64,000 nucleotides of DNA from Minisyncoccota bacterium (GCA_035546615.1 DASZWM010000002.1:1-64000), one strand, 5' to 3'; shown: positions 5,226 through 35,301, numbered from the stretch's first letter. Made by a program: numbers and translations. Notes: a model not told the origin generated them from the sequence alone.

Positions 5226-5300
5226 CAGAGGAGCGAAGCGATTACTGGGCTTGGGGCCAGGATTGGGAAGGGGTCGGAAATATTTGATTTATTTTATATT
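5226..5300. repeat. tRNA-Phe trailer with inverted copy of the tRNA 3' end and a degenerate GGGGTCGGAAA...ATTTTGTGC core
   Basis: 5249..5263 (gcttggggccaggat) is the exact reverse complement of tRNA positions 5210..5224. This is followed by GGGGTCGGAAATATTTGATTTATTTTATATTTTGTGC, which resembles the trailer cores found after other tRNAs. Confidence 0.35.
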
Positions 5301-5359
5301 TTGTGCTATCCTATATATAGAGGGGCGCAAGGCCTTGATCTCAACAGACGAGGGAAACT

Positions 5360-5758: not shown

Positions 5759-5809
5759 GTATTGCGCCGCCGGGAAACCTGGCGGCGCAATTTGTTTTTA
5801 TATAAACGC

Positions 5810-6310: not shown

Positions 6311-6325
6311 AGAAATACGGGGGGT

Positions 6326-7033
6326 TTAGGAATAGTGGGGCATAGGGCGCTTCACGCGCTCAAGCCCAAGCAATATCGCGACGATACCAAGCCAGATAAC
6401 GAGGAAAATCCAAAATGTCGCGCCACTGCCACTCCCCAGTATAAAAAAATTGAACAAGGTATGCAACGCGACGGCAAGGATAACTCCGCATAAGGCGGCC
6501 AGGCGCCGCGCGGCGGCCGGCTGGTAAAAGGAAAACGCGAGCGCCACGCCGATAGACGCGGAGGAGAGCGTGTGCAGGAGGGTAGCCCCGATGAACCGAA
6601 GGTCGCCGGTGACTATCGTCTGGAGCACGTTGCCGTCCATAAGCGGGTTCAGCAGGAACAGCATGTTCTCGGCCGCCGAAAATCCGAGCGCGGCGGTTAC
6701 AAGATACACGACGGCATCCAGCGGCTCGTCGAACACGCGCGAGCGCAGGGCGACCAGATACGCGGCCGCGAACTTAAAGAGCTCTTCGGCCAGCGCCCAC
6801 AGGAACAGCACGCCCAGGCTCGTGGACGCGTAGCCGAGGCTTATCGCCTGGGCCAGTACGAGGCGCTCCACGGGGAGCACGAACGGCACCATGCACATGC
6901 CGGCCAGAAAGCAGAAGAAGATGTATTTCTTCGGCTCGGGATGCAGGCGGTCCTCAAGGAGCCAGAACGTCAGCCACAGCAGCGCCGGGAGCACGCCGCC
7001 GAGGAATGCTATGAACAGCACGGGCGAGAGCAT
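6326..7033 (-). CDS. PrsW-family intramembrane metalloprotease
   Basis: Multi-TM protein with the conserved EELFK, FxxxEN (FSAAENMLF) and HTLSSA motifs of the PrsW/CPBP-like glutamic proteases. Confidence 0.65.
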   Translation of the reverse strand: MLSPVLFIAFLGGVLPALLWLTFWLLEDRLHPEPKKYIFFCFLAGMCMVPFVLPVERLVLAQAISLGYASTSLGVLFLWALAEELFKFAAAYLVALRSRVFDEPLDAVVYLVTAALGFSAAENMLFLLNPLMDGNVLQTIVTGDLRFIGATLLHTLSSASIGVALAFSFYQPAAARRLAALCGVILAVALHTLFNFFILGSGSGATFWIFLVIWLGIVAILLGLERVKRPMPHYS

Positions 7034-7040
7034 GCGCCCA

Positions 7041-9191: not shown

Positions 9192-9243
9192 TGCTGCAAA
9201 TACTACGCCAAATAAGGCTTTTTTAGAAGGGTCAAGGACATAT

Positions 9244-9272
9244 TTGCTTTTTATGCTAAAATATGATATAAT
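9244..9272 (+). promoter_or_regulatory. Sigma70-like promoter candidate TTGCTT-N17-TATAAT
   Basis: Near-consensus -35/-10 with 17-nt spacer in an AT-rich intergenic region upstream of ORF 9344..9769. The valS start is divergent to it. Confidence 0.35.
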
Positions 9273-9343
9273 TGTAAAGCTGACCGGAATGGTAGCCGTT
9301 TAACTGATGAGCGGTTAGATGAACTCCAGAACAGGGGTTATTA

Positions 9344-9769
9344 ATGTCCAAAGAAATCGTTCTTTCAGGCTCCGCCCGTCTCGCACTCTTCATTGTCGAG
9401 AAGGCGCTCAGCGTCTTACTCGATAAGGAGATCATGCTTAAGGATTGCACCATCCTTCTGCATGAGCCGTGGGCCCACAAATTCGAAAATGGTGCTCAGA
9501 TTCGTGAAGGGAGAATCACAGGTAATCTTTGGCTTAAGGAGGGTGAGAAGCCGGAGCCTGTGGACGCGGTAGTGTCTCTCTTCTGTTTCGATGACGGTCG
9601 CCCAGCCATGATCTCTGGCAATCAACAAGTCATTCGGATTCCGACCTCGGGAATACTGGTATACGCGAATTGGCAAGAGAATGGTGCTATTCGGGTGGGG
9701 GATGCAAATATTTCCCCGATTCCCTGGTTTTATACCCCAGACTACGTAAAGGGATCCCTTGACCGTTAA
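9344..9769 (+). CDS. Hypothetical protein
   Basis: 141 aa ORF in a lower-GC patch. No recognisable motif. Confidence 0.4.
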   Translation: MSKEIVLSGSARLALFIVEKALSVLLDKEIMLKDCTILLHEPWAHKFENGAQIREGRITGNLWLKEGEKPEPVDAVVSLFCFDDGRPAMISGNQQVIRIPTSGILVYANWQENGAIRVGDANISPIPWFYTPDYVKGSLDR

Positions 9770-9790
9770 CCAAGTCGCCGCTTCCGGCGC

Positions 9791-9818
9791 AGAGCCAGCA
9801 TCGAAAGGTGCTGGCTCT
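9791..9818. terminator. Bidirectional hairpin between convergent genes
   Basis: Perfect 10-bp stem AGAGCCAGCA-tcgaaagg-TGCTGGCTCT between ORF 9344..9769 (+) and tsaD (-). Confidence 0.5.
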
Positions 9819-9820
9819 AG

Positions 9821-10915
9821 CTATTTTACTATCGACAATTGACCCTCCGCCCTGAAGTCTTCCTTTGTTGCGTCATCAAGGCCGTTTAAGCGCCTTGCGA
9901 GCGCGGCTTCGGCTATCATTATCGCGTTGTCACCGGTTATGGAGAGCTCCGGCAGCCGGAATTCGGCGTATGAAAAGTCTTTTTCGATAAGCTTTTGCAG
10001 CTGGCTCCGCAGATGGGCGTTCGCCGCGACCCCGCCGCCGATGACGAACGTCTTGGCACCCGTTTGTTCCATCGCGCGGGCCGTTTTCTTAAGCAGTATC
10101 TCCGTTACAGCATCCTCGAACTCGCGCGCAAAATCCGCTATTTGTTCGGCCGAAAGCGTTTGTATGCCGCCCATGTCGCGCAGGGCGTAAAGCGCGGCAG
10201 TCTTAAGGCCGGAGAAAGAGACGTCGCAAGTGTCCGCCTGAAGCATGGGACGGGGAAGCGAGACAACGCTTTTTTTTCGCGAGGTTTCACCTCGCGAAAA
10301 ACTGGCAAGCCGGGAGATTTCCGGACCGCCGGGGTAGGCGAGGCCGAGCATGCGCGCAACCTTATCGAACGCTTCGCCAACGGCGTCGTCGAGCGTCTCG
10401 CCGATAATTTCATACTTGAACCACTCGCGCATGAGCACGAACTCAGTGTGCCCGCCGGATATCAAAAGCCCTAGGACGGGGAACTGCACATTCTTAATTT
10501 CCATCATTTTAGCTTTTTGCAAAAAGCTAAAATGATTGCTTCCTGTTTGTGCAAGGGAAGAGATAAGATGCCCCTCCATATGGTTGGTCGGCAGGAGCGG
10601 CAGATTTTTATCAGCCGCGAGCTTCTTGGCGAATTCGATGCCGGTCCAGAGCGCTGGCTCAAGCCCCGGGCCCTGAGTTACCGCGATAGCGTTCGCTTCT
10701 TCATCCTTAAACTGCTCAAATAGCACGGGCAGGTTCTTCTGGTGCTCGCGCTTGGCGAGATTGGGGTAGACCCCGCCATACTCGGCGTGTAATTGGGCTT
10801 GCGAAAGGAGAGCGTGCTTAAGCACGCTAAATGCGAATCCACCGGCGGTCTTTTCTCCTTCAACTAAGGCAATACCCGTCTCGTCGCAGGAGGTTTCTAT
10901 AGCGAGGATTTTCAT
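9821..10915 (-). CDS. tsaD: tRNA N6-adenosine threonylcarbamoyltransferase TsaD (Kae1/YgjD)
   Basis: Aligns along its whole length with TsaD: MKILAIETSCDETG, HMEGHL, SGGHTEF, FSGLKT and GGGVAAN motifs. Contains an in-frame insertion of about 15 aa encoded by a palindromic repeat (see findings). Confidence 0.9.
   Translation of the reverse strand: MKILAIETSCDETGIALVEGEKTAGGFAFSVLKHALLSQAQLHAEYGGVYPNLAKREHQKNLPVLFEQFKDEEANAIAVTQGPGLEPALWTGIEFAKKLAADKNLPLLPTNHMEGHLISSLAQTGSNHFSFLQKAKMMEIKNVQFPVLGLLISGGHTEFVLMREWFKYEIIGETLDDAVGEAFDKVARMLGLAYPGGPEISRLASFSRGETSRKKSVVSLPRPMLQADTCDVSFSGLKTAALYALRDMGGIQTLSAEQIADFAREFEDAVTEILLKKTARAMEQTGAKTFVIGGGVAANAHLRSQLQKLIEKDFSYAEFRLPELSITGDNAIMIAEAALARRLNGLDDATKEDFRAEGQLSIVK
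10505..10534. repeat. Perfect 30-nt palindrome CATTTTAGCTTTTTG|CAAAAAGCTAAAATG (core of a 45-nt repeat, copy 1)
   Basis: Perfect inverted repeat inside the tsaD coding sequence. Near-identical copy at 30632..30661. Confidence 0.7.
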
Positions 10916-11051
10916 AGTCTTTTTGTGTCACAAATATTTCTTCGCCGTCGCTCAGAAATTTTGCGACCCCGGCTCGCGGTTTTGCAATTGCAAAACATCG
11001 CTGCGCCCCGCACCAGGTGCAAAAACTGCCGCAGGGCAGATTTTGCGTCTC
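10916..11051 (-). repeat. tRNA-Val trailer element (family A, copy 3)
   Basis: In tRNA sense: GAGACGCAAAAT, then hairpin CTGCC/GGCAG plus T-run, then GTGCGGGGCGCAGCGATG, hairpin TTTTGCAATTGCAAAA, CCGCGAGCCGGGGTCGC, hairpin GTCGC/GCGAC, GGCGAAGAAATATTTGTGAC, then the tsaD ATG. Homologous to 39607..39760 and 49790..49943. Confidence 0.45.
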
Positions 11052-11127
11052 TGGTGCGCGGTGAGGGATTCGAACCCCCGACATCGTCAACGTCAATGAC
11101 GCGCTCTACCAACTGAGCTAACCGCGC
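11052..11127 (-). tRNA. tRNA-Val (anticodon GAC), CCA encoded
   Basis: Reverse complement gives GCGCGGT-TA-GCTCAGTTGGTAGAGC-G-CGTCA-TTGACGT-TGACG-ATGTC-GGGGG-TTCGAAT-CCCTC-ACCGCGC-A-CCA. Confidence 0.8.
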
Positions 11128-11812
11128 GATTCCGTATTACCTTCTGGCAATACAATTGATAAAGATACAATAAATCCCGTTGTATTGCCACATCGTAATA
11201 TGAAACTATGCATACTCCTTTATAGGAATTACGTGATTTCTTCCCGATGGTCCTTTTGTCAAAATAAACACCTTTGAACTGATCTTGTGGAATTGCGAGC
11301 GCTGCGCACCAGTACTTGATTATTTCCGAAGGTCTCTGATCCGCCCGTATATGCACTTCGCACCGCATCCTTTTAAGATCTATCCTGTACGAAAGGCATA
11401 AGGCGCTTATAAAAAAGTTCAATATGTTGGGATCAGCATTTCCTAACACCAAGCCTTTCTCTCGTTTCGTTCCTTCTCCCCAATACAGCATCGCCAAAGC
11501 AAGCTTAAGTATCTCCTTATCTTTGTAGCCAATCCGCTGGATCGTTCTTTCCGCCCGGGTTTTCGCTGCTTCTATGCGCTGCATTTTTTGTTGAGTATGC
11601 CGAAGAGCAGCCTTTTCACGGGCAAGAATAAGGGCGTTTTTCCTACTTCGTTCGAGCCTGTCGCGATAGGTAGGCGGAAGTTCCACATTTCTAAGCCACC
11701 CGCTAAGAGTAGAGCGCGGGATTTGAAGTGCCTCTTCTATATTCCTAATGGAAGCTCCTTTGATTCTCAGGCGAACAGCCTTGTCCCGCAAACCAGAAAA
11801 ACGAGATGTCAT
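11093..11812 (-). CDS. HTH plus LAGLIDADG-like (homing endonuclease-like) protein, paralog of 4079..4711
   Basis: Internal Met of ORF 11093..11938. HTH-like segment IRNIEEALQIPRSTLSGWL and variant motif LAMLYWGEGTKREKGLVL. Collinear similarity to the 4079..4711 product. Lower GC. The 3' end overlaps the 5' end of tRNA-Val by about 35 nt. Confidence 0.4.
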   Translation of the reverse strand: MTSRFSGLRDKAVRLRIKGASIRNIEEALQIPRSTLSGWLRNVELPPTYRDRLERSRKNALILAREKAALRHTQQKMQRIEAAKTRAERTIQRIGYKDKEILKLALAMLYWGEGTKREKGLVLGNADPNILNFFISALCLSYRIDLKRMRCEVHIRADQRPSEIIKYWCAALAIPQDQFKGVYFDKRTIGKKSRNSYKGVCIVSYYDVAIQRDLLYLYQLYCQKVIRNRAVSSVGRARH

Positions 11813-11828
11813 ATTATCCAGTGTACAC

Positions 11829-12116
11829 TCAATGGTTCCAAGACTCAATCCTTTTTTGCTTATCTTCTCCCCAGCGCCACCGCGCAGGCTCGCCCCGTTT
11901 GTAACATATCCAGAAAAGCAGGCCGGTAGTAACCGCAATATACGGTATCAACAATAAAATTCCCCATACGTTGCCGCTCGTTACGATGAGATGCACGAGC
12001 AAGAGCGCTCCGGCGATAAAAGATAGCATCCACAAGAGCATCACCAAGAACCCTTCCTTCGTAGCGGGGTACCAGCCATATCCGTACTGCTTCGCCTTGA
12101 ACCAGTATTTTTCCAT
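11829..12116 (-). CDS. Hypothetical small membrane protein
   Basis: Internal Met ([23 protein letters not shown]...) of ORF 11829..12191. Two predicted TM helices. Starts 5 nt downstream of tRNA-Ser. Confidence 0.35.
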
Positions 12117-12262: not shown

Positions 12263-12334
12263 GGCCCTATCGTCTAACGGTTAGGACATCGGCTTTTCAA
12301 GCCGGTAATAGGGGTTCGATTCCCCTTAGGGCTA
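12263..12334 (+). tRNA. tRNA-Glu (anticodon TTC)
   Basis: GGCCCTA-TC-GTCTAACGGTTAGGAC-A-TCGGC-TTTTCAA-GCCGG-TAAT-AGGGG-TTCGATT-CCCCT-TAGGGCT-A, with a G1-U72 wobble. Confidence 0.75.
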
Positions 12335-12359
12335 CAAATTTAGGGAGTATACTTGGAGC

Positions 12360-12528: not shown

Positions 12529-12927
12529 ATGTACGGCTACATTACGAACATCGAGAAGGCGTCGCTTGAGAACGAATACTTTCGGCGGGTGCTCTACACC
12601 GACAAGCGCCTCCAGCTTGTGGTGATGAGCCTCAATCCCCGCGAGGATATCGGCGAAGAAGTGCATCCGCTTGACCAGTTCATCCGCGTGGAGCAGGGCG
12701 ACGGCAAGGCCGTATTGGACGGCAAAGAGACCGAAATCCACGACGGCTCGGTGGTTATCATTCCGCAGGGAACCCGGCACAACATCGTCAACCTGTCTCC
12801 TGACCAGCCGATGAAGCTTTACACCCTGTACGCTCCGCCGGACCACAAGGACGGCACTATACATAAGACAAAAGCGGACGCGCAGGCAGACAAGGGGGAT
12901 GAGTTCGACGGCAAGACGAGCGAATAA
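12529..12927 (+). CDS. Cupin domain protein
   Basis: Conserved cupin motifs around EEVHPLDQFIRVEQGDG and GSVVIIPQGTRHNIVN. Confidence 0.65.
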   Translation: MYGYITNIEKASLENEYFRRVLYTDKRLQLVVMSLNPREDIGEEVHPLDQFIRVEQGDGKAVLDGKETEIHDGSVVIIPQGTRHNIVNLSPDQPMKLYTLYAPPDHKDGTIHKTKADAQADKGDEFDGKTSE

Positions 12928-13942
12928 AGAAGTGACAAAGGCCTATATTCAGCATGAGGGTAAAGCCGTAAGCGACCCGCGCTTCAGCCACATGATGGCT
13001 ATTGCCCTGGACTCAAGTTCGCAAAACAAGCGTGGCGTTATTCGCTGTATTGTGAGCCGCCAGGGGAATGTTGCGGAAAAGGGATATGTAGATCGTAGCG
13101 AGTTGCATACAATTTCCGGGGACACACTAGAACACTTTACTGTTGGAGAAAAGCTACAAATAGAAAACGAGAATGTTATTGCTGAGCAGCTAAGTGCAGA
13201 AGGGCTCGATTACCTTGGGCTCGAGGATCCGGATATTTGGATTGACCAAAAGACGGGGCTTTTGCACTTGTACTTCACCATGCCGTTTGTCAGTAAAGAA
13301 GAGGGTCATTCTCAAATTCATCTCGGACATGCTGTAGGCAAGGATTTGAACTCGCTTCAAATGACAATGCCCGCGCTCCGTGCGGATACGGGCGGTAAAA
13401 ACACCGCAAAAGAAGTCTCTATTGCTCCGACAAATAGCAAAGGGCTCCGCTACAATCTTTTTGAATCAAGCCAGATAGAAGGCGGAGTTTGGTATTCTAC
13501 GGTCCGTGTAGGCATTGCGGCAGATATGGACCAGCCGTGGCAGTTTGGCGAAACAGTATTCCATCCTAAAGAAAAAAATATTGCCTGGGCCGGTGGCCAC
13601 GCCTCGCCAGGACCCCTGTTCTCCAAAGAGTTTATTGATGTAGGGGAAGGGAAGCTCCTCGGCATTATGAACGGGCGCGAGGCCAATCAGCAGCCTGGAG
13701 ACAAAACAATATACGGAATGTTTTCAGTCGGACTTTTTGTCTACGATTACGAGAATGGAAAAGTCGACTGGGTCTCGCCCGAGCCGCTCATTATTGATTC
13801 CGAGGCCAAGACGATTACTTTCGCGAGCCAATTTGTCGAGACAGGAAAAGGCGAGGGTATCTTATATGCGCACGTGGATGATTCCTTTGTGCGGGCGTAT
13901 ACACTTAATGCGGAAGCTATAAAAGGGCTCCTGCTGAAATAA
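12899..13942 (+). CDS. Hypothetical protein, possibly a beta-propeller glycosidase-like fold (GH130/DUF377-like)
   Basis: 347 aa ORF. Likely true start at an internal Met near 12989, since the ORF start overlaps the cupin gene. Lower GC. Repeated W/Y-rich beta-strand pattern. No firm motif. Confidence 0.35.
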   Translation: MSSTARRANKEVTKAYIQHEGKAVSDPRFSHMMAIALDSSSQNKRGVIRCIVSRQGNVAEKGYVDRSELHTISGDTLEHFTVGEKLQIENENVIAEQLSAEGLDYLGLEDPDIWIDQKTGLLHLYFTMPFVSKEEGHSQIHLGHAVGKDLNSLQMTMPALRADTGGKNTAKEVSIAPTNSKGLRYNLFESSQIEGGVWYSTVRVGIAADMDQPWQFGETVFHPKEKNIAWAGGHASPGPLFSKEFIDVGEGKLLGIMNGREANQQPGDKTIYGMFSVGLFVYDYENGKVDWVSPEPLIIDSEAKTITFASQFVETGKGEGILYAHVDDSFVRAYTLNAEAIKGLLLK

Positions 13943-25724: not shown

Positions 25725-28208
25725 ATGGCTGACGACGAAACAAAGAAAGACCCCAAAGACGGCCGCACTGACGGCGGCACCGGCATAGTCGGGCGCAACA
25801 TCTCCACCGAGATGCGCGAGAGCTTCATCGACTACGCGATGTCGGTCATTACCGACCGCGCGCTTCCTGATGTGCGCGACGGATTGAAGCCCGTGCACCG
25901 CCGCATCCTCTACACCATGCATCGCCTGGGGCTCACGCCTTCGGCGCGCTTCCGCAAGTCGGCGCTCGTGGTGGGCGACGTGCTCGGCAAATACCATCCG
26001 CACGGCGACGCGTCCGTATACGACGCGATGGTAAAAATGGCGCAGGAGTTCTCCATGCGCTATCCGCTCGTGCTCGGCCAGGGCAACTTTGGTTCCGTGG
26101 ACGGCGACTCGGCCGCCGCCATGCGCTACACCGAAGCGAAGATGTCCCGCATGGCGGAGCAGCTCCTCGGCGATATCGAAAAGGAAACTATCGACTGGCG
26201 CCCCAACTACGACGGCAGCCTCAAGGAGCCGGTGGTGCTTCCGGCCGCGGTGCCCAACATTTTGCTTAACGGCACGCTCGGCATCGCTGTGGGTATGGCC
26301 ACCTCTATCCCGCCGCACAACCTCACCGAGCTCTCAAACGCGCTCGTGCACCTTATTGAGAATCCCGAGGCGACGGTAGAGGACCTCATGCAGTTCGTCA
26401 CCGGCCCCGACTTCCCAACAGGTGCGCTCGTATTTAATAAGAAGGACCTGCTCCACGCGTACACCACCGGCAAGGGCGGCGTGGTTACCCGCGGCGTTGC
26501 CGAAATTGTGGAGGGCAAGAAGGGCGACTATCAGATAGTCATTACCTCCATACCGTACCGCGTGAACAAGGCCGACATGATAATGCGCGTAGCCGACCTC
26601 GTGCACGAGAAGAAGCTCGAGGGCATCCGCGGCCTGCGCGACGAGTCCACCAAGGACATCCGCATCGTAGTAGACCTGAAGCAGGGCGCGCATCCGCAGA
26701 AGGTGCTCAACTACCTCTACAAGCACACGGCGCTCGAGGACACGTTCCACTTCAACATGGTCGTGCTCGTGGACGGCGTGCCCCAGACCCTGTCGCTGAA
26801 GGGGATACTGCAGGAATTCATCAAGCACCGCCAGGACGTCGTGCGCCGCCGCACGCAGTACGACCTTACGCAGGCGCAGGCCCGCGAGCATATATTGCTC
26901 GGCCTCAAGAAGGCGCTCGACCATATCGACGAGATAATCAAGCTCATCCGCGCATCCCGGGACGTGGCCGACGCACACGCAAACCTGATGAAGAAGTTCA
27001 AGTTCTCCGAACTGCAGGCGACCGCCATTCTTGAAATGCGCCTCCAGAAGCTCGCCAACCTCGAGCGCAAGAAGATAGAGGACGAATTGAAAGAGGTTCA
27101 GGCCCTTATCGAAGAGCTCACGAGCCTGCTGAAGAGCGAAAAGAAGATGATGACGGTCATCCGCGGCGAAATAGAGGACATCAACAAGAAATACGGCGAC
27201 GAGCGCAACACCAAGGTGGTAAAGGGCGCGGCAGGCGTCATTAACGTCGAGGACCTCGTGCCCGACGAGGAGCAAGTGCTCGTGCTCACCCAGGGCGGCT
27301 ATGTAAAGCGCACCAACCCCGACGAGTTCCGCAAGCAAAAGCGCGGCGGCGTGGGCGTCATCGACCTCGATACCAAGGAGGAGGACTTCGTAACGAACTT
27401 CCTCACGACCTCGACGCACTCGGACCTGCTCTTTTTCACCAACGCGGGCAAGGCGTACCAGCTGAAGTTCTACGAGATCCCCGAAGGCAAGCGCTCCACC
27501 AAGGGCCGCCCTATTGTGAACTTCCTCTCCGTTACCCCCGAAGAGCGCGTTACCTCGGTGCTCCCTATGCGCAAGAACCAGAAGGAGGGCGAGAAATTCC
27601 TCTACATGATAACCAAGCAGGGCGTCGTGAAGAAATGCGACGCGACTGCCTTCCACGATGTGCGCCGCTCCGGCCTCATCGCGCAGAAGCTCCAGAAGAA
27701 CGACGAGCTCATCGCGGCACTCTTGGTGGAGAAGGGCGATGAAATATTCCTTTCGACCGCCAAGGGGCAGTCTATCCGCTTCAAGGAGTCCGACGTGCGC
27801 CCGATGGGCCGCGCGGCCGGAGGCGTGCGCGGCATGAAGCTCAGCGGCGGCGATACCATCGTGGGTGCCGATGTGGTTAAGAAGGGAGTAAAGAACCAGG
27901 AAGTGCTCGTCATTTCACGCAACGGCTACGGCAAGACGACCGCGACCGAAGAATATAAGAACCAGAACCGCGGCGGCTCCGGCATCAAGACCATGAATAT
28001 GACCCCCAAGACCGGCCCGCTTATCGCTGCGCGCATCATCACCAAGGAAGATGGCGTGGGTGAGGACGAGATCGTGGTCATATCTAAAAAAGGCCAGGTC
28101 ATCCGCACCGAGCTTAAGGAGATCCCCAGCCTTTCCCGCAGCACGCAGGGCGTACGCGTTATGAAGCTCCGCGAAGGCGATGCGATAGCAAGCTTCGTTT
28201 GTCTATAG
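25725..28208 (+). CDS. gyrA: DNA gyrase subunit A
   Basis: Active-site region AMRYTEAKM (catalytic Tyr), QRDR-like [16 protein letters not shown], and the C-terminal beta-pinwheel repeats. 827 aa. Confidence 0.95.
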
Positions 28209-28211
28209 GAT

Positions 28212-28805
28212 ATGGATACTACCACTCAGGCGTATCTTGAAATTCTGGAGAAAACAAATCAGCAATTAAGTCTTTGGTATAACCCATATGGTCTAATGGT
28301 GGCAGTATTGACTGGCCTAGTAGCGGCACTTGCAATTGTTTTTGCTTTTATTTTATGGAGACAGCAGAAAGAATATAAAGATGCTTTTAAAGATTTTCTC
28401 GCTGAACGTAAAAAGTTCGCCAATAGTGAGATAGCAAAGGCAATAGTAGAAGCCGGAAAAGTGCTTGACGATAAAATTATAGAAGCGGACAAACAACTCA
28501 AAGATATAAAAGACTCAAGTAGCAAAACAAAAAAAGACATTGAGAAGGAAATTCAAGAACTCAAAAAGTCCAGAGAATCTTTGCAGTCAGGTAGTGCGAT
28601 TTTTCGTAGTGGAGGTGTGAGCGGCCCAATATATGGCACCGCTGCGAGTTCTATTTTGGGAGTAGCTTCTGGCGCGAATAGTACAACCGTTTGGGATCCA
28701 ACTTCTAGTGTATTTAGTGCTGTTGGTAAAATATGTGGTTTTTGTGGAACTCAGAATTATCCTGGCGCACAATTCTGTTTCTCTTGTGGGAACCCCCTTG
28801 GATAA
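28212..28805 (+). CDS. Membrane-anchored protein with C-terminal zinc ribbon
   Basis: One TM helix, a K/E-rich coiled coil, and a C-terminal CGFCGTQNYPGAQFCFSCG double-CxxC motif. About 38% GC versus about 60% in flanking gyrA. Confidence 0.5.
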   Translation: MDTTTQAYLEILEKTNQQLSLWYNPYGLMVAVLTGLVAALAIVFAFILWRQQKEYKDAFKDFLAERKKFANSEIAKAIVEAGKVLDDKIIEADKQLKDIKDSSSKTKKDIEKEIQELKKSRESLQSGSAIFRSGGVSGPIYGTAASSILGVASGANSTTVWDPTSSVFSAVGKICGFCGTQNYPGAQFCFSCGNPLG

Positions 28806-28842
28806 AAAGTTCTTGTCTTCCTAGAAAGAATCTAATCACTAT

Positions 28843-29817
28843 ATGAAAATAAAGATTGAAGAATTGCGGCAATTAATGGTTAAAATTCTTGCGGGCAAGT
28901 ATTACTCGCAGGAGGAGGCAGAAAAGATTGCCGAAGTTTTTCTTTATGCTGAATTGTCCGGTAAAAATACACAAGGAGTTCTTAAACTTCTTGGTTCTGA
29001 GCCGGCTCAAAATATACAGCCCAAGTATCTTCCTAAGATTATAAAAGAGACAAAAGTATCTGCGCTTGTAGACGGAGGCGGAGCGGCCGGACCTTTGGCA
29101 GCTCAATTTGCACTAGATAAGGCGATTTCATTGGCTAAAGAGACTGGAGTAGGAATTGTGGGTTTAAACAATACTTTTTCTAGCGTAGGAGTTATGGGAT
29201 TTTATGCTCGCAAGATGGCCCAAGCAAATCTGATAAGTATTGTGAGTGCAAGTTCACCCAGAGCAATTGTTCCTGCGGGAGGTATTGAGCCAGCTTTTGG
29301 CACAAACCCCATAGCATTTGGTTTCCCTACAGAAGAATATCCAATCGTTTTTGATATGGCGTCTTCGGCTATCACTTGGTATGGGCTTGTTCGTGCAAAA
29401 GCCCTTGGTCAAAAGCTACCCGAAAATGTCGCGATTGATAAAGAAGGAAACATAACAACTGATCCTGAGGCGGCAATGGCTGGAGCTATTTTACCTTTTG
29501 ATCGCTCTTACAAAGGTTCTGGGCTGGCTATGGTCGTTGAACTCTTAGCGGGAGCTTTTACAGGTGCATCGGTTGTATTTGACGAAGGTGACTGGGGAAC
29601 TTCCTTTATTGCCTTTAGTCCCGATCTTGTTATTGGCACTGAGCAATTCAAGAAAAAGTCCTCAGAGCTGGTAAAGAAAGTAAAAGCAGGCAAAACCAAA
29701 GCAGGAGAGAGCATACATATCGCCGGTTATGACAGCGAGGCAAAGCTAAAAGAGATCAATGATTCAGGAGAGATAGAGATTGAAGATAAAATTCTCGATC
29801 AACTAAAGACTTTGTAA
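28843..29817 (+). CDS. Malate/L-lactate dehydrogenase family 2 (Ldh_2) oxidoreductase
   Basis: Collinear with the Ldh_2 family (sulfolactate/ureidoglycolate dehydrogenase-like), for example GVLKLLGSEP...GGGAAGPLA...GFPTEEYPIVFDMASSA. Low GC. Confidence 0.65.
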   Translation: MKIKIEELRQLMVKILAGKYYSQEEAEKIAEVFLYAELSGKNTQGVLKLLGSEPAQNIQPKYLPKIIKETKVSALVDGGGAAGPLAAQFALDKAISLAKETGVGIVGLNNTFSSVGVMGFYARKMAQANLISIVSASSPRAIVPAGGIEPAFGTNPIAFGFPTEEYPIVFDMASSAITWYGLVRAKALGQKLPENVAIDKEGNITTDPEAAMAGAILPFDRSYKGSGLAMVVELLAGAFTGASVVFDEGDWGTSFIAFSPDLVIGTEQFKKKSSELVKKVKAGKTKAGESIHIAGYDSEAKLKEINDSGEIEIEDKILDQLKTL

Positions 29818-29824
29818 TAAGAAT

Positions 29825-30364
29825 ATGAAATTTGGGAACTTGAAATTTGCGCCTGCCATTGAACACCCAGAACTTTTGGCTGCTCCTGTTGCTAGTGCAC
29901 TTACGAGTTTGTCCATCGCTGATGTTGGTGTCGCAGAAATCGACCCAGCTCTCTCCGACACCGCAGCATTTTGCGAGAAGTACGCCGTTGTGCCTGCCCA
30001 GGCTGCTAATTGTGTAGTGCTTAAGTACAAAAAAGGCGAAGAGTCGGCCTTTGTCGCATGCGTGATTTTGGCAACCACTCGTGCTGATGTGAACGGCCTG
30101 GTGCGCAAGGTACTCGACATCAAAAAGATTTCTTTTGCGCCCATGGAGGAAGCCGTGGCAGGAAGCTCGATGGAATTTGGAGCAATAACTCCTATCGGTT
30201 TACCAGCTAATTGGCCAATTTTAATAGACAAAGCCGTTGTCGATTCTCCTGGGGTTATAATCGGGAGCGGAATTCGCAAATCTAAATTAGGTTTACCGGG
30301 CAGAGTTCTTGCTTCACTGCCGAACATACAAATACTTGAAGGGCTAGGTCAGGTAAAGACATAA
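29825..30364 (+). CDS. YbaK/ProX-type aminoacyl-tRNA deacylase domain protein
   Basis: About 180 aa with the YbaK-like pattern (ANCVVLKYKK...FVACVILATTRADVN...GAITPIGLP). Confidence 0.55.
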   Translation: MKFGNLKFAPAIEHPELLAAPVASALTSLSIADVGVAEIDPALSDTAAFCEKYAVVPAQAANCVVLKYKKGEESAFVACVILATTRADVNGLVRKVLDIKKISFAPMEEAVAGSSMEFGAITPIGLPANWPILIDKAVVDSPGVIIGSGIRKSKLGLPGRVLASLPNIQILEGLGQVKT

Positions 30365-30371
30365 TAAATAT

Positions 30372-30626
30372 ATGAGCAAAGGAGATACAGTACCGCCAGT
30401 TCCTTCGGACGCTCCTCAGGTAGGAGAGGTCTTTAAGCATTACAAAGGGGACCCATACCGCGTCGTAGCGCTCGCGCTCCATTCCAACGACGACGAGTGG
30501 ATGGTGGTGTACGAGCCCATATACGAAAATCCGGCCGCGCCCATGTTTACCCGGCCGGTTCGGGAGTGGGGAGAGGAAGTAGAGTGGGAAGGCAAAAAAG
30601 TGAAGCGCTTTCAAAAAACAGCTTAA
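30372..30626 (+). CDS. DUF1653-family protein
   Basis: FKHYKGDPYRVVALALHSNDDEWMVVYEP matches the conserved DUF1653 core. Confidence 0.55.
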   Translation: MSKGDTVPPVPSDAPQVGEVFKHYKGDPYRVVALALHSNDDEWMVVYEPIYENPAAPMFTRPVREWGEEVEWEGKKVKRFQKTA

Positions 30627-30631
30627 TTCTT

Positions 30632-30661
30632 TATTTTAGCTTTTTGCAAAAAACTAAAATG
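30632..30661. repeat. Near-palindromic 30-nt repeat TATTTTAGCTTTTTGCAAAAAACTAAAATG (copy 2 of 45-nt repeat)
   Basis: Differs from 10505..10534 by two positions. The shared left flank CTTAATT extends the repeat to about 45 nt (30622..30663). Its terminal ATG is the HAD gene start codon. Confidence 0.7.
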
Positions 30662-31063
30662 AAAAAGACCGTCATCTTCGACATGTACGGCGTGCTGGTG
30701 CGCCGGAACTTTTTCATAAACGAGGAGGAAGATACGGAGATGGTCGCGCTTGTGCGGGAGCTTAAAGAAAGGGGAACTCAGCTTCTGCTACTTTCCAATA
30801 TCTATATATGGAACTCGGCGCACTTCAAAAGGAAGTACCGCTTTTTGGAGCTGTTCGACAGGCTCTACTTCTCTTCCGACACTCACTTTTCCAAGCCCGA
30901 CCCGGCGGCATTCCGAATGGTGCTTGAGGAAAATAACCTAAGCTCCGAAGACTGCGTCTTTTTTGACGACACAAAGGCCAATGTAGAAGGGGCGAAAGCC
31001 CTCGGCATAGAAGCGTATGTGTTTGAAGGCCCGGATGCGACAAGAAAAGCATTGGGTATGTAG
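30659..31063 (+). CDS. HAD-superfamily hydrolase
   Basis: Internal Met of ORF 30497..31063. Motif I VIFDMYGVL (DxD variant), motif II LSN, motif IV FFDDTKANVEGA. Confidence 0.6.
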   Translation: MKKTVIFDMYGVLVRRNFFINEEEDTEMVALVRELKERGTQLLLLSNIYIWNSAHFKRKYRFLELFDRLYFSSDTHFSKPDPAAFRMVLEENNLSSEDCVFFDDTKANVEGAKALGIEAYVFEGPDATRKALGM

Positions 31064-31105
31064 GAGAGGGACGAAAAGGGATATTTAATGCTATAACACC
31101 GGAAG

Positions 31106-31525
31106 ATGAATAGTGGAAAGGGGGCAGCGATGCCGAAAATCGAAATCGACAAGATGATGCTGGCTCGGGTGGAGGGGAGAAAGCTCCTGTTCGCCCGCAC
31201 GCGCGGCCTGGATACCTTTTACAGCCTGGGCGGCAAGCGCGAGCCGGGCGAAACGGATGAGCAGGCACTGGTACGCGAAGTGCTGGAAGAGGCGAACGTC
31301 CGCATAGACCCCGCTACCATTAAGCACGTACAGACCTTTGAAGGGCCCGCCCCGGACGGCCGTTGGATGCGCATGACCTGCTACGACGCGGAATTTGAGG
31401 GCGTCATGACGCCTTCAAGCGAAATAGAGGAGTTCAAATATCTGAGCTCAACCGATAAGCAGCTGACAACCCAGATGGGCGCCATGCTCCTGGACTGGTT
31501 CAAGGAACAAGACCTCATCGACTGA
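31106..31525 (+). CDS. NUDIX hydrolase
   Basis: Nudix box GGKREPGETDEQALVREVLEEANV. Confidence 0.65.
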   Translation: MNSGKGAAMPKIEIDKMMLARVEGRKLLFARTRGLDTFYSLGGKREPGETDEQALVREVLEEANVRIDPATIKHVQTFEGPAPDGRWMRMTCYDAEFEGVMTPSSEIEEFKYLSSTDKQLTTQMGAMLLDWFKEQDLID

Positions 31526-31570
31526 CAATATTCGTTCTATACTATAGCCAGTCTGAACAGGGAGAAATAC

Positions 31571-31765
31571 ATGAGCGATCGGCGAGATTTCGACGACAGC
31601 GACTTTCCAATCCGCGGTGGGGGAAAGCAGCCGTGGAGCTTAAAGATCTCGCGCCAGGAAGTGGAAGCCGCCGTAGAGGAGGGCAACCTTCTGCGCATGC
31701 TCGACCAAGAAGTGACTGTGACGCCGGAGGTCATCCTGATGATCGAAGCAGCACGTCGCTTATAG
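31571..31765 (+). CDS. Hypothetical small protein
   Basis: 64 aa ORF followed by a strong terminator. Confidence 0.3.
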   Translation: MSDRRDFDDSDFPIRGGGKQPWSLKISRQEVEAAVEEGNLLRMLDQEVTVTPEVILMIEAARRL

Positions 31766-31786
31766 GCGACTTCGCCACTGAAAACT

Positions 31787-31812
31787 AAAAGGCCGCCCAT
31801 GGGCGGCCTTTT
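31787..31812. terminator. Bidirectional rho-independent terminator
   Basis: AAAA-GGCCGCCC-at-GGGCGGCC-TTTT, a perfect 8-bp GC stem flanked by A and T runs. Confidence 0.6.
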
Positions 31813-31844
31813 GCTTTTGTCGTAAGGAACAGGTCGGGCCATAG

Positions 31845-32492
31845 CTAGGCCGTGCGGAAGCGCCCCGCGCCAACCCACTCGTCTTGGCCCTTGGGCTTGG
31901 GGTAGTCGTAGCGCTCGCGAGCCGACCAGACGTCGACCCGGTGACAGAACGAAGCTAGCTCGTTCATAACCCGGCGCTTGGACGAGTAGTCCGTGTACTC
32001 GCCCTCCACGTACGTCAGCGCGTTCATCTGGTAGTCGGTGAGAACGATTCCGTATTCGCGCAGCTTCTGCTCGCGGAAGCGCCGGAACGCCTCCTTGGTC
32101 TGCAAGCCTTCCGCGTTGCTGGCTTCTCCGTTCTTAACTTGGATTCGCCACGGCTTCTCCAGGTCGTGAAGGAAGAATATCAGCGTGAAATCGTCGAGCT
32201 CAAAGCGCATTGGCCTTCCGAAGGCCTTCTCGAACTCGTACAGGTGTCGCCCGTAGTTGAGGCCGTCGGTGATGTGGTCGATGTAGCCGCCTGCCCACGT
32301 TTGATGGTTGTGGGTTGAACCCTGAGCCTTCTCGAAGAGCTTGCGATTATCCTGCAGGATGCGTTCGCAAGCGCCCCTCAGGCTGGTATCGCGGATATGA
32401 GTCAGGCATTCATCGATAGTTTCGTAGTCGAAACCGAGGTTTATGGTCCGCACGGCTGTCTCCCTGGGTTTTGAAAGGACTGTTTTTACCAT
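31845..32492 (-). CDS. HD-domain-like phosphohydrolase (tentative)
   Basis: His/Asp pattern STHNHQ...YIDH...FFLHDLEK consistent with an HD metal-binding site. Otherwise unassigned. Confidence 0.35.
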   Translation of the reverse strand: MVKTVLSKPRETAVRTINLGFDYETIDECLTHIRDTSLRGACERILQDNRKLFEKAQGSTHNHQTWAGGYIDHITDGLNYGRHLYEFEKAFGRPMRFELDDFTLIFFLHDLEKPWRIQVKNGEASNAEGLQTKEAFRRFREQKLREYGIVLTDYQMNALTYVEGEYTDYSSKRRVMNELASFCHRVDVWSARERYDYPKPKGQDEWVGAGRFRTA

Positions 32493-32534
32493 ACCACCTT
32501 GTAAGGTTTTAATGAACGGCGCGTCAAAAGGGGT

Positions 32535-32954
32535 ATGAAATTACAATTTTTTGCGGGATTTTTAGTAGCTATCTTGGCACTTGTGGGCGTTTGGGCGTAT
32601 GCCTCTTGGGACCGCAACAAGATGCTGGACGGACAGGCGAACCAAAATATAGTTTCTAATGACGCCTCATCTTCTCCCGCGACCGGCGGCAAAAAGTCGC
32701 CTACTTCGGAAACTTTGACCGGCACCATTGAGTGCCTCCCGCATAAGGGCGACGGCCCCCACACTATGGAATGCGCCGTCGGCATCAAGACCGACCAGGG
32801 CCAGCACTACGCCCTCACCATGTTCGACTATCCGTCCGCTGCCGACGTTGGCGACCATGTGAAGCTCGTCGGAGTTACCGTAACTACAGACGAACTTCAT
32901 GCGAGCTATGACATAGTCGGTACATTCCAGGTCGCAAGCGTTGAAAAGATATGA
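32535..32954 (+). CDS. Hypothetical membrane-anchored or secreted protein
   Basis: N-terminal hydrophobic segment FFAGFLVAILALVGVWAYA. No motif. Confidence 0.4.
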   Translation: MKLQFFAGFLVAILALVGVWAYASWDRNKMLDGQANQNIVSNDASSSPATGGKKSPTSETLTGTIECLPHKGDGPHTMECAVGIKTDQGQHYALTMFDYPSAADVGDHVKLVGVTVTTDELHASYDIVGTFQVASVEKI

Positions 32955-33067
32955 AAGCGCGCATCGTAAAAATGAAAAACGAATACGGAGGGGAGCTGAC
33001 GGTCATCCTGATAGCGCTTGCGGCGGTATTGGCCTACGCGTTCTGGGGCTCGCTGCTCATCAAGTAA
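32951..33067 (+). CDS. Small hydrophobic ORF (38 aa), not in the ORF track
   Basis: ATGA overlap with the upstream ORF. Translation MKARIVKMKNEYGGELTVILIALAAVLAYAFWGSLLIK. Followed by hairpin CAAGCCCCCGCGGGGGCTTG at 33076..33095. Confidence 0.25.
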   Translation: MKARIVKMKNEYGGELTVILIALAAVLAYAFWGSLLIK

Positions 33068-33096
33068 TAACAGTACAAGCCCCCGCGGGGGCTTGT

Positions 33097-33360
33097 TTAG
33101 AATTCGCGACCGAACCATTTCCCCTGATGCGGAGGCGCATCGTCCTCCATATCGCCCGGGGATGTGCTGACCGCCGCCTTTCGCATAAGAGCCGTCTGGA
33201 TGATGGTGTTGAGGTGCTCCGCTCTCGCGCGGTAGACAAGCACCGCGCCTCTCTTCACGTCATATCGCCGGTAGGCCTTGATCCCTGCCGCCGTCAATTC
33301 GCGGCGTATCGCCAGAACCGTTCTCTTGGCGGCTCTGACTTTTAGAACAGTCTCCTTCAT
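33097..33360 (-). CDS. Hypothetical small basic protein (C-terminal part of ORF 33097..33708)
   Basis: Only the 3' 87 codons, from MKETVLKVRAAK, avoid being antisense to the methyltransferase gene. Shares the convergent terminator at 33076..33095. Confidence 0.2.
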   Translation of the reverse strand: MKETVLKVRAAKRTVLAIRRELTAAGIKAYRRYDVKRGAVLVYRARAEHLNTIIQTALMRKAAVSTSPGDMEDDAPPHQGKWFGREF

Positions 33361-33378
33361 TGCCGCTCCTGCCGCAGT

Positions 33379-33990
33379 ATGCGCCTGAACCGACACGACT
33401 ATACCATGCGTTCGTGGGGTATACTTATACGCATGGCAGAGAGTACTTTTTTGCACCCGGGTGCGGCGGTGCGAGCGGCCGGCATACATGAGGGGCTGCT
33501 CGTAGCCGACTTCGGGGCGGGGTCCGGCTTTTTTACCCGGGCGGCGGCGCGCGAGGTAGGCGATGCGGGCGCAGTGTGGGCGGTAGACCAGAATCGCGAC
33601 CTGTTGCCGCGCATCAAGAACCTTTCGGCAGGCGAAGGACTCAACAATGTAGAGGTTATGCACGGCGATATCGAGGTGGTGGGCGGCACCAACCTGCCGG
33701 AGAACCATTTCGACTTCGTTATTCTCGCCAACGTGCTTTTCATGCTCTCCGAGCGCGGCGAATGCATGGCGGAGATGCGCCGTGTGCTCAAAAAGACCGG
33801 CCGCGTTCTTGTTATCGACTGGAAGGATTCATTCGGGGGCCTTGGGCCGCATCCGGACCATGTGATCACTCAGGAAGCGGCACAGGCGCTGTTTGAAAAG
33901 CACGGCTTCACCATGGGCCCCGCGGTGCCGGCGGGCGAGTATCATTGGGGATTTGTCGTTCGCAAAAAAGCCGCGCAGGGCGCATTATAG
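33379..33990 (+). CDS. Class I SAM-dependent methyltransferase
   Basis: Motif I LVADFGAGSGFFT, followed by an acidic motif II and a methyltransferase type 11-like layout. Confidence 0.7.
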   Translation: MRLNRHDYTMRSWGILIRMAESTFLHPGAAVRAAGIHEGLLVADFGAGSGFFTRAAAREVGDAGAVWAVDQNRDLLPRIKNLSAGEGLNNVEVMHGDIEVVGGTNLPENHFDFVILANVLFMLSERGECMAEMRRVLKKTGRVLVIDWKDSFGGLGPHPDHVITQEAAQALFEKHGFTMGPAVPAGEYHWGFVVRKKAAQGAL

Positions 33991-33999: not shown

Positions 34000-35301
34000 A
34001 TGTCCACGTTCCAAATCGTCGTCCTCGGCATCTTTTCTTCGCTTATCCTTATAGGCGTCGGCGTGTTCGCCGCCTTTGGCGGCGTGCTGGGCGGCGCGGC
34101 CATCGGCCCGGTTACTATTTGGGGCACGCTTGATAGGAACACGATGGACGGTCTTATAGAGGCCCTGCGCGCGGAGGACAAGGGCTTTGAAACCGTTACC
34201 TATGTGCAGAAAAGCGAAGCCGCGTACGAGGGCGACCTGGTAAACGCCATGGCATCCGGCTCCGGCCCCGATCTGTTCCTCCTTTCGGGCGACGAGGTGC
34301 TCCCGTTTTCCGACAAGATACTCACCATTCCGTACGGCTCCATTTCGCAGGGAAGCTACTTAGCTTCGTACGTGGACGAGGCGCAGCTATTTTTGACGCC
34401 GCAGGGCGTGCAGGCGCTGCCCTTCACGCTCGACCCCCTCGTGATGTACTGGAATCGCGACCTTTTCGCCTCCGCCGGCATCGCGTCGCCGCCGAGCGTC
34501 TGGAGCGAGTTTTTGACGCTGGCGCCCAAGATAACCTCGCTCGATACCCGGTCCACCGTGCAGAAAAGCGCGGTGGCACTCGGCGAATGGCGCAACATTC
34601 CGCACGCCAAGGATATTCTTGCCGCCCTGTTCATGCAGGTGGGGGACACTATCGTCGCCCGCGACGGTGCCGGAGCGCCTACGGTTACGTTCGGCTCGGA
34701 GCCCGAAGGCTCGGCCGGCAATCCGGCGGAGTCGGCCCTGCGCTTCTATACCGAGTTCGCAAATCCTTCAAAGACCAGCTACTCGTGGAACCGGGCGCTG
34801 CCTCCGGCGGCTGACGCGTTCGTGTCGGGCGACGTGGGCGTCTACTTTGGCTTCGCAAGCGAGTATACGGAAATTAGCCAGCGCAACCCTAACTTGCGGT
34901 TCGGCGTCGCGCTTCTGCCGCAGATAGACCAGGGCGGAAGCCGGGTCACCTACGGCGACATCACCGGCATCGCTATAGCGCGCACGGCAGCGAACGTTAA
35001 AGGCGCGCTTACGGTAGCGCAGATACTCTCGGGCAAAACATCGGTCGGCATTATCTCCGGAGCGCTCTCCTTGCCGCCCGTTCGGCGCGATGTCGCGGTG
35101 GATACCGCATCCAGCGCCACAGCGGGCGTCTTCGTGCAGTCGGGGCTTATCGCGCGCGGCTGGCTTGATCCGTCCCCGAAAGGAAGCGATACCGTGTTCC
35201 AGACCATGATAGAATCCGTGGTGAGCGGCAAGGAGGCGCCCGCCACTGCGGTAAGCGAAGGCAAGGGGGCGCTCAGCGAGCTGCTGCCGTCGACCAGATA
35301 A
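34000..35301 (+). CDS. Membrane-anchored extracellular solute-binding protein (SBP_bac_1/MalE-like)
   Basis: N-terminal TM anchor. MalE-like landmarks IWGTLD, GSGPDLFLLSGDE, LVMYWNRDLF, PxxW. No ABC permease or ATPase gene adjacent. Confidence 0.5.
   Translation: MSTFQIVVLGIFSSLILIGVGVFAAFGGVLGGAAIGPVTIWGTLDRNTMDGLIEALRAEDKGFETVTYVQKSEAAYEGDLVNAMASGSGPDLFLLSGDEVLPFSDKILTIPYGSISQGSYLASYVDEAQLFLTPQGVQALPFTLDPLVMYWNRDLFASAGIASPPSVWSEFLTLAPKITSLDTRSTVQKSAVALGEWRNIPHAKDILAALFMQVGDTIVARDGAGAPTVTFGSEPEGSAGNPAESALRFYTEFANPSKTSYSWNRALPPAADAFVSGDVGVYFGFASEYTEISQRNPNLRFGVALLPQIDQGGSRVTYGDITGIAIARTAANVKGALTVAQILSGKTSVGIISGALSLPPVRRDVAVDTASSATAGVFVQSGLIARGWLDPSPKGSDTVFQTMIESVVSGKEAPATAVSEGKGALSELLPSTR

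Follow-up and report, generated by a model that had tools for sequence, protein, structure and literature searches.

Directly downstream of gyrA, in a 64,000-nt stretch of a Minisyncoccota metagenome-assembled genome (MAG) (GCA_035546615.1, DASZWM010000002.1:1-64000; hereafter the window), lies a stretch of low GC content at positions 28212-30364. It carries three forward-strand genes, encoding a membrane-anchored protein with a zinc ribbon (ZnR), an oxidoreductase of the Ldh_2 family and a YbaK-like protein. Comparison with related genomes identified the interval between gyrA and a downstream methyltransferase gene as a lineage-wide hotspot of horizontal gene transfer (HGT) whose content turns over, and the low-GC stretch is probably the gyrA-proximal, most AT-rich part of a layered islet of 5.2 kb that fills this hotspot in Candidatus Adlerbacteria. 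Ldh_2 would have arrived recently, drawn from the low-GC (36-44%) portion of the gene pool of the candidate phyla radiation (CPR), while the YbaK-like gene and the DUF1653, HAD and NUDIX genes that follow it would be older occupants common to some relatives, with a composition that becomes progressively host-like.

Sliding-window analysis showed a GC of approximately 0.60 across gyrA (25725-28208, forward strand; GC 0.60, GC at third codon positions (GC3) 0.83), which fell to 0.37-0.46 over 28150-29950 and was again at approximately 0.60 by 31150. With a GC of 0.429, 28212-30364 was found to be the minimum among all 2153-bp windows of the 64 kb (mean 0.576, standard deviation 0.042, z = -3.5), the runner-up among non-overlapping windows having a GC of 0.491. 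It was also an outlier in tetranucleotide usage, its correlation with the remainder of the window being 0.454 (window mean 0.775, standard deviation 0.088). Its tetranucleotide profile correlated with those of low-GC loci carrying Ldh_2 homologues at r = 0.54-0.62, compared to only 0.13-0.41 for gyrA. The genes for ZnR (28212-28805; GC 0.40, GC3 0.29), Ldh_2 (28843-29817; GC 0.43, GC3 0.33) and the YbaK-like protein (29825-30364; GC 0.48, GC3 0.43) were the three poorest codon-usage matches among the 58 open reading frames (ORFs) of the window (z = -2.8, -2.6 and -2.6, respectively), and their codons matched tables from two low-GC CPR loci better than the window's own synonymous-codon table. 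An earlier note on this DNA, made from the sequence alone, had described a fall in GC in the three genes after gyrA and had proposed sliding-window GC, tetranucleotide and codon-usage comparisons as checks; the fall was borne out by all of them, with codon usage strongly deviant and not uniform, and the gene identities given there (ZnR, Ldh_2, YbaK-type, DUF1653, HAD and NUDIX) were all correct by Pfam.

Maximum-likelihood segmentation placed breaks at 28185, at approximately 29850 and at 31120-31160, delimiting segments with a GC of 0.60, 0.41, 0.49 and 0.58. The left break lies within approximately 25 bp of the gyrA stop codon, in agreement with the sharp compositional border that the earlier note had drawn there. 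Its right edge at 30364 did not hold, as composition recovers stepwise at approximately 29850 and 31150 instead; the palindromic repeat that it had reported beside this edge does exist (26 nt, 30634-30659), but sits at neither change-point. The compositional island spans approximately 2.9 kb in two tiers, the first consisting of ZnR and Ldh_2 (GC 0.41) and the second of the YbaK-like, DUF1653 and HAD genes (GC 0.49), and it is exceeded by the variable region as defined by comparison with relatives (28209-33378, 5.2 kb).

The GyrA protein (827 aa) was found to be 66-90% identical to those encoded by 80 Patescibacteria genomes, with 74-90% identity to MAGs labelled Candidatus Adlerbacteria or Paceibacterota and 66-69% identity to other Paceibacteria, such as Taylorbacteria and Yonathbacteria, which served as outgroups. 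Judged by these identities, the host is assigned to Candidatus Adlerbacteria, an uncultured lineage of the Patescibacteria (CPR). Other large ORFs of the window are core genes, namely those of a class I tRNA synthetase, TopA, ClpB, RelA/SpoT and IF-2. Searches of thirteen window proteins against the 80 gyrA loci with 10 kb on each side (tblastn) revealed a conserved order of a metallo-beta-lactamase-fold (MBL) protein, an 85-aa ORF, gyrA, the interval, an S-adenosylmethionine (SAM)-methyltransferase (33379-33990, forward strand) and a 433-aa lipoprotein resembling solute-binding proteins (SBP-like, 34000-35301), the last two forming the conserved right flank. These two genes were located downstream of gyrA in approximately 60 of the 80 relatives, at a distance of between 6 bp and 7 kb (6 bp to 6,983 bp for the gyrA-methyltransferase interval in 64 loci). 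The interval was shorter than 300 bp in 12 of 16 outgroup loci, and the flanks were therefore nearly adjacent in the ancestral state. Among Adlerbacteria it is typically 0.3-6 kb, with a GC that is nearly always below that of gyrA.

The content of the interval was found to be highly variable. Clustering of 229 interval ORFs from 55 Adlerbacteria loci gave 168 clusters, 147 of them singletons, and in 58 Adlerbacteria loci the sequence past the gyrA stop was unrelated, homology ending exactly at the stop codon. Among 150 interval ORFs scanned with Pfam, NUDIX was the most frequent family (16), followed by Fic (4), DUF1653, HAD, Ser_hydrolase and ASCH (3 each) and SET (2), with adh_short, Ham1, adenylosuccinate lyase, aminoglycoside nucleotidyltransferase, radical SAM and RhuM families each seen singly. 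The identity of the first gene after gyrA does not follow gyrA phylogeny; in the closest relative by gyrA (locus L001; related loci are referred to by such numbers) the first ORF after gyrA is an unrelated membrane ORF of 106 aa. Uniform codon usage, together with relatives sharing the three genes in the same place, had been named in the earlier note as evidence against acquisition; the codons are deviant, and the ZnR, Ldh_2 and YbaK-like trio was present in none of the 80 species-level relatives.

Horizontal acquisition is well supported for Ldh_2, the clearest such gene of the islet. Its product, by family a NAD(P)-dependent 2-hydroxyacid/2-oxoacid oxidoreductase, matched PF02615 over its full length (residues 3-322 of 324; E 1e-81, 275 bits against a cut-off of 38.8). 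The nearest named enzyme is L-sulfolactate dehydrogenase (top PDB match 2x06, E 5.9e-44). As the protein scored under every NCBIfam equivalog cut-off (207 against 500 for L-sulfolactate dehydrogenase; 163 against 356 and, for AllD, 150 against 496 among the others), no substrate was assigned to it. No homologue was identified within 10 kb of gyrA in the 80 relatives. The four nearest homologues sampled shared 80, 77, 73-74 and 71-72% amino acid identity with Ldh_2 and were located in loci with a GC of 0.435, 0.36, 0.41 and 0.41, respectively; their genes have a GC of 0.39-0.43 and a GC3 of 0.25-0.33, which the window gene resembles (0.427 and 0.332). In L082/L083 (5001-10978) an HTH_17 gene precedes the homologue, and a large serine recombinase is found 3 kb away; the L087 homologue (4803-11645) has a tyrosine integrase on one side and a large serine recombinase on the other. 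These settings suggest that integrative elements carry this Ldh_2 clade in low-GC CPR genomes. A phage origin of Ldh_2 was considered and rejected, with no relative identified in a scan of IMG/VR and nothing meaningful in PHROGs; neither PHROGs nor PADLOC gave a meaningful match for ZnR or the YbaK-like protein, nor PADLOC for Ldh_2.

For ZnR, whose gene begins 3 nt past the gyrA stop, horizontal origin is plausible. From its N terminus, the protein is made up of a short helix, a single transmembrane helix (residues ~29-48), a long charged helix and a disordered linker rich in Gly and Ser, and it ends in a zinc ribbon of the form CxxC-x10-CxxC, which scored 25.3 bits with Pfam Zn_Ribbon_1 (cut-off 25). 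An AlphaFold2 model (mean pLDDT 67.6) was without a globular fold, with helices at residues 4-23, 25-98 and 104-133, disorder at 130-170 and a small ribbon at 172-195. The family has no Pfam model and comprises 538 representative clusters (E <= 1e-3); its N-terminal motif, ILEKTNQQLSLW-NPYG, is invariant and precedes the transmembrane helix, and the C-terminal zinc ribbon is optional. Genes of this family follow gyrA in L086/L138 (identity 56% in a global alignment and 50% in tblastn), L095, L102 and L104-L107, with a remote homologue of like architecture in L003 (26% identity), and all of these have a GC of 0.37-0.42. None of the gyrA-linked homologues in other Adlerbacteria is followed by Ldh_2 or a YbaK-like gene. 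A neighbour-joining tree, in which bootstrap support was mostly weak, showed gyrA-linked members mixed with unlinked ones (for example, L101 with L102).

Elsewhere, ZnR homologues adjoin restriction-modification genes (L090/L101, with L090 at 2026-6528, and L092, 4992-9548), two loci having ZnR directly beside a pair of genes for an N6_N4 methyltransferase and a ResIII helicase; others lie beside small phage-like ORFs, near serine recombinases (L118, L120, L121 and L089) or after mreB (L091). In L098 (5001-5561) ZnR stands alone as a single-gene islet with a GC of 0.40 in a genome of 0.56-0.60. From these contexts, ZnR appears to belong to a mobile, mostly AT-rich family that is repeatedly found first after gyrA in Adlerbacteria. 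The known gyrase inhibitor YacG is a zinc-ribbon protein. A functional link between ZnR and gyrase was rejected, as 57 of the 65 metagenome loci of the family are not beside gyrA.

The YbaK-like protein was identified as a divergent subfamily member of the YbaK/ProX superfamily (tRNA_edit, PF04073; E 5e-18, 65.7 bits against a cut-off of 25.5). It is not an equivalog of the Cys-tRNA(Pro) deacylase (TIGR00011, 29 bits against 153), and it gave no PDB match by sequence, with matches at profile level only (1wdv, 1dbu and 2dxa; E 5e-4 to 8e-3). Its GC3 is mosaic, being low at both ends and approximately 0.5-0.7 in the middle of the gene. Intact orthologues were found in the same interval of L012 (76%) and L014 (66%). 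In L012 the gene directly abuts gyrA, with overlapping stop and start codons (TAATG), and this locus looks like the empty-site state for ZnR and Ldh_2. Remnants truncated at the 5' end were identified in L017 (12919-13266) and L024 (13236-13379), each just 3' of a different low-GC ORF following gyrA, and look like scars of insertion with deletion at the hotspot. By this comparison, the YbaK-like gene would be an older occupant of the interval. ZnR, Ldh_2 and the YbaK-like protein (a membrane protein, a 2-hydroxyacid dehydrogenase and a protein with a tRNA-editing domain) have no evident common function.

The gradient in GC3 seen along the window's islet is an instance of a general pattern. In approximately 25 Adlerbacteria relatives, an ORF starting 0-8 nt past the gyrA stop was found to have a GC of 0.33-0.42 whatever it encodes. 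Among 30 loci (the window included) with an ORF start within 16 nt of the stop, the first ORF had a median GC3 of 0.34, compared to 0.69 for gyrA, and did not correlate with host GC3 (rho 0.08). In 27 relatives with an interval of at least 1.5 kb, the GC deficit relative to the flanks was -0.12 in the first third of the interval, -0.064 in the middle third and -0.029 in the last, and -0.144 in the first 500 bp on the gyrA side against -0.024 in the last 500 bp on the methyltransferase side. The first 500 bp were lower in GC than the last 500 bp in 24 of these 27 loci, in which the first ORFs are mostly different genes.

The observations may be accounted for by a hotspot at which new DNA would enter beside the gyrA stop with no integrase dedicated to the task. 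It would probably be taken up by natural transformation and then fixed by recombination, either homologous or homology-facilitated illegitimate, with the conserved flanks as anchor. Double homologous exchange and one-sided homology-facilitated illegitimate recombination are both known from other bacteria; here, the former might take place between Adlerbacteria and the latter might be anchored in gyrA. The truncated YbaK-like remnants of L017 and L024 fit an illegitimate distal junction. Inserted genes would then be expressed by read-through from gyrA. Eight ORFs on the forward strand (gyrA, ZnR, Ldh_2, YbaK-like, DUF1653, HAD, NUDIX and a 64-aa ORF, orf64) extend to position 31765 with gaps of 3-45 nt, and the first strong terminator candidate past gyrA is a hairpin at 31786-31813, located between orf64 and a convergent ORF of 215 aa. 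This bidirectional, intrinsic-terminator-like hairpin has a 12-bp stem with seven G-C pairs and T-runs on both strands. Given the shared strand, the short gaps and the position of this terminator, read-through of the inserted genes from gyrA is probable. Older cargo would shift distally, drift toward host GC and finally be deleted. AT-richness is a general property of transferred genes. The cargo may be AT-rich because it comes from an AT-rich mobile gene pool, or because DNA without homologous partners lacks GC-restoring forces, two causes that are inseparable in these data.

Several points weigh against this reading. No recombination signal was resolved in the flanks, where a search for breakpoints covered gyrA and the methyltransferase, SBP-like and MBL genes and where the available relatives are 12-25% apart in nucleotide sequence; the nearest neighbour by segment (gyrA, methyltransferase and SBP-like gene) alternates between L001, L002, L003 and L009, all only 70-88% identical and thus too distant for recombination to be called. 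Third-position identity between Ldh_2 and its best homologue is 0.43 and saturated, which places the actual donor outside the sampled loci; moreover, the genomic contexts of Ldh_2 are those of the four nearest homologues, and its absence from Adlerbacteria refers to the surroundings of gyrA and not to whole genomes. The Wilcoxon test of the polarity (p ~1e-6) overstates independence, as the 27 loci are from related species. The gyrA-linked ZnR-family genes, at 26-56% identity, are all still AT-rich, which is awkward for a simple amelioration clock and allows the alternative that AT-richness is kept up in accessory DNA rather than being a mark of recency. Finally, Ldh_2 is presumably the newest gene and yet stands second, not first, so that a strict conveyor starting at the gyrA stop is not an exact match for this locus.

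In a related explanation, the 3' end of gyrA is itself a polarised gene-capture site that repeatedly receives foreign AT-rich genes 0-8 nt past the stop and works as an integron-like conveyor without integrase or attC. Captured genes would ride on gyrA transcription and translational coupling, and earlier captures would be displaced downstream, where they would ameliorate and decay; a possible driver is illegitimate recombination of the one-sided, homology-facilitated kind, with its anchor in the highly conserved gyrA. We regard this explanation as unlikely.

Another explanation holds that the genes are not foreign, and that they are long-term residents in which AT-biased mutation is unopposed by selection or GC-biased gene conversion, since DNA that is accessory or evolves fast has no homologous partners; low GC would then mark accessory status and not recent import. 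Consistent with this are the ZnR-family genes, all AT-rich, that several Adlerbacteria lineages carry at this position, the GC3 of first ORFs, which is approximately 0.3 whatever the host GC3, and a GC deficit that scales with the rarity of gene sharing. However, Ldh_2 is well conserved and full-length, is 80% identical to proteins from low-GC genomes and is missing at the site in 80 of 80 relatives. Interval content is also replaced and not merely diverged, as seen in the predominance of singleton clusters and in the unrelated first ORF of the closest relative, and the outgroup, and thus ancestral, interval is nearly empty. The ZnR family, furthermore, reaches a GC of 0.54-0.67 in hosts of other lineages with a GC of 0.58-0.70; its GC tracks that of the host there, and the family is therefore not intrinsically AT-rich. 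Long-term residence is accordingly a rather poor prospect as an explanation of the stretch.

Site-specific integration, with a mobile element (for example, one encoding a large serine recombinase) targeting the gyrA 3' end and its recombinase and att sites lost later, was judged improbable. Such a process would suit inserts that begin 0-8 nt past the gyrA stop in approximately 25 lineages, and the recombinases found 1-3 kb from Ldh_2 homologues (L082/L083 and L087) and near ZnR homologues are also in its favour. Against this, no recombinase was identified by Pfam in the window's interval proteins, nor among the 25 commonest Pfam families of the 150 interval ORFs scanned (12 rarer families lying outside that list), and neither of two large serine recombinases nor a tyrosine integrase had a tblastn match in any Adlerbacteria interval. 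In 42 loci, no second copy of the last 60 nt of gyrA was found downstream, the longest stretches of exact identity (8-12 nt) being as long as expected from shuffling, and no direct or inverted repeats flanking the island were found above the shuffled expectation. No tRNA or Rfam element was found in or beside the island, the nearest tRNAs being located at 12263-12335 and 39195-39279, and inserts in the lineage are mostly single small genes of differing kinds. A conserved recombination motif past the gyrA stop was also sought and rejected, as only short A-rich spacers before the ATG, or terminator hairpins, were present.

The earlier note had suggested that ZnR, Ldh_2 and the YbaK-like gene were acquired horizontally as a cassette. 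Foreign origin stands for Ldh_2 and is plausible for ZnR, as described above, but the single cassette fails, since the genes have separate histories and no two of them were adjacent in any of the 156 loci compared. A single event, bringing in all three as one 2.2-kb unit from one donor and reaching from the gyrA stop to near the palindrome, is thus very unlikely, even though the genes are contiguous on the same strand with gaps of 37 and 7 nt and share the poorest codon-usage matches of the window. Segmentation separates ZnR and Ldh_2 from the YbaK-like, DUF1653 and HAD genes at approximately 29850, four relatives have a YbaK-like orthologue in the gyrA-methyltransferase interval but neither ZnR nor Ldh_2, and different genes come after the gyrA-linked ZnR homologues (Ser_hydrolase and ASCH in L086; ASCH in L003 and L105).

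An assembly chimera, in which the gyrA stop would mark the join between a high-GC Adlerbacterium and an organism of lower GC, might be suspected from the abrupt compositional switch in a MAG, but has next to no chance of being correct, as a Logan contig assembled separately from SRR12170516 matches 27680-33969 without a difference, both flanks included, the sequence on the right goes back to the syntenic Adlerbacteria methyltransferase and SBP-like genes, a junction of the gyrA stop with a ZnR-family gene within 3-6 nt was assembled from at least six other samples (L086/L138, L095, L102 and L104-L107, from other metagenomes), and a false join would be expected within shared sequence and not 3 nt past a stop codon. 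The drop in GC is real, far beyond chance and no artefact.

The remainder of the interval contains genes with a composition closer to that of the host. DUF1653 (30372-30626, forward strand; GC3 0.59) matched PF07866 (E 1e-18), and at least 12 relatives have homologues of 57-71% identity between gyrA and the methyltransferase gene. It is followed by a HAD-IA family phosphatase (30659-31063, forward strand; GC3 0.65; PF00702, E 1.3e-15; TIGR01509, 57 bits against 29), the final gene of the 0.49-GC tier, and by a NUDIX hydrolase of host-like composition (31106-31525, forward strand; GC3 0.74; PF00293, E 1e-10). Downstream of NUDIX lies orf64 (31571-31765, forward strand), which by eye shares short motifs (DRRDFDD.DFPI and PWSLK) with two small ORFs in the matching interval of L001 (13348-13584 and 14129-14401). 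Two ORFs without a Pfam match and near host composition complete the interval: the 215-aa ORF (31845-32492, reverse strand; GC3 0.77), with a homologue in L051, and a 139-aa ORF (32535-32954, forward strand; GC3 0.61), with homologues in L003, L011 and L056 (tblastn) and in L055 (blastp clustering).

The AT-rich palindrome of 26 nt, TTTTAGCTTTTTGCAAAAA[G/A]CTAAAA, occupies the spacer between DUF1653 and HAD and ends at the HAD start codon. Two copies were found in the window (10507-10532 and 30634-30659), with none expected by chance, and these are also alike over approximately eight more flanking bases; the palindrome was absent from 91 related loci. The copy at 10507-10532 lies within the coding sequence of tsaD, where it encodes ...FSFLQKAKMM..., in a loop that is presumably longer than that of E. 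coli TsaD. The palindrome could be a small in-frame insertion, a miniature mobile element or a protein-binding site. As a border of the island it was rejected, given its distance from both change-points and its second copy inside tsaD.

Elsewhere in the window, three further ORFs with deviant codons were observed at 4079-4711, 11093-11938 and 12899-13942 (GC3 0.45, 0.44 and 0.50, respectively). The first two have no Pfam match and adjoin tRNA-Gly and tRNA-Arg, and tRNA-Val, respectively. These three ORFs are probably further small acquired islets. At 57507-62158, a gene for an AcrB-type RND transporter (1034 aa, E 1.7e-183) was found beside one for an HlyD-type membrane-fusion protein, in the manner of a tripartite efflux pair.

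In CPR bacteria, whose genomes are tiny and whose metabolism is minimal, the gain of just one dehydrogenase or editing factor can alter the abilities of the cell. The locus is a well-bounded example of gene entry at a fixed site behind an essential gene, with no recognisable mobile element and across a lineage. Its conserved flanks make the site recoverable from any Adlerbacteria metagenome, and it could serve as a record of gene flow and amelioration; if the polar GC gradient reflects order of arrival, rates of gain, amelioration and loss could be estimated.

Among known systems, classical tRNA-linked islands resemble this locus in being low in GC, atypical in codon and tetranucleotide usage and variably present among relatives, but the locus lacks a tRNA, an integrase, direct repeats and genes for mobility and is much smaller (2-5 kb). 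Integron arrays are alike in one respect, namely that the newest genes lie at the upstream, expression-providing end with older ones further away, in one orientation and with short spacers. The locus is not a member of that class, as it has no IntI and no attC, its spacers (3, 37, 7, 7, 32 and 42 nt) are too short for attC, and its cargo does not consist of cassette-sized units with recombination sites, the only palindrome being 26 nt long and present at a single spacer.

Genomic islands have been described in Patescibacteria, with mostly intra-phylum transfer and with competence and pili as the proposed route (PMC12455944). Those islands share with the present one a deviant composition, mostly intra-Patescibacteria transfer and cargo related to metabolism and translation. 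They were predicted genome by genome (IslandViewer, MetaCHIP), and no mention of a lineage-shared, gyrA-linked site was found in the text of that study, in which the word 'hotspot' occurs 0 times.

The closest likeness is to hotspots free of mobile genetic elements (MGEs), which diversify via recombination in the core genes on either side (Oliveira, Touchon & Rocha 2017, PMC5635113). Shared with these are the conserved syntenic flanks, rapid turnover, lack of integrase or transposase, mixed accessory cargo and a host group thought to be naturally competent; of the four features of MGE-free hotspots, three (syntenic core flanks, high turnover and no recognisable mobile element) are present at the locus. 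The fourth, an excess of homologous recombination in the core genes of the flanks, supports the model of that study and is the one for which no signal was resolved here. Unlike the hotspots of that study, which were described within species, the present one extends across species or genera of an uncultured CPR lineage, and its most AT-rich DNA lies beside gyrA, a polarity not described there as a general property. As such hotspots and HGT in Patescibacteria are already documented, the locus is a real and well-supported, conceptually ordinary hotspot case that leaves current concepts unchanged; what exceeds an ordinary hotspot is that a polarity behind an essential gene recurs consistently throughout an uncultured lineage.

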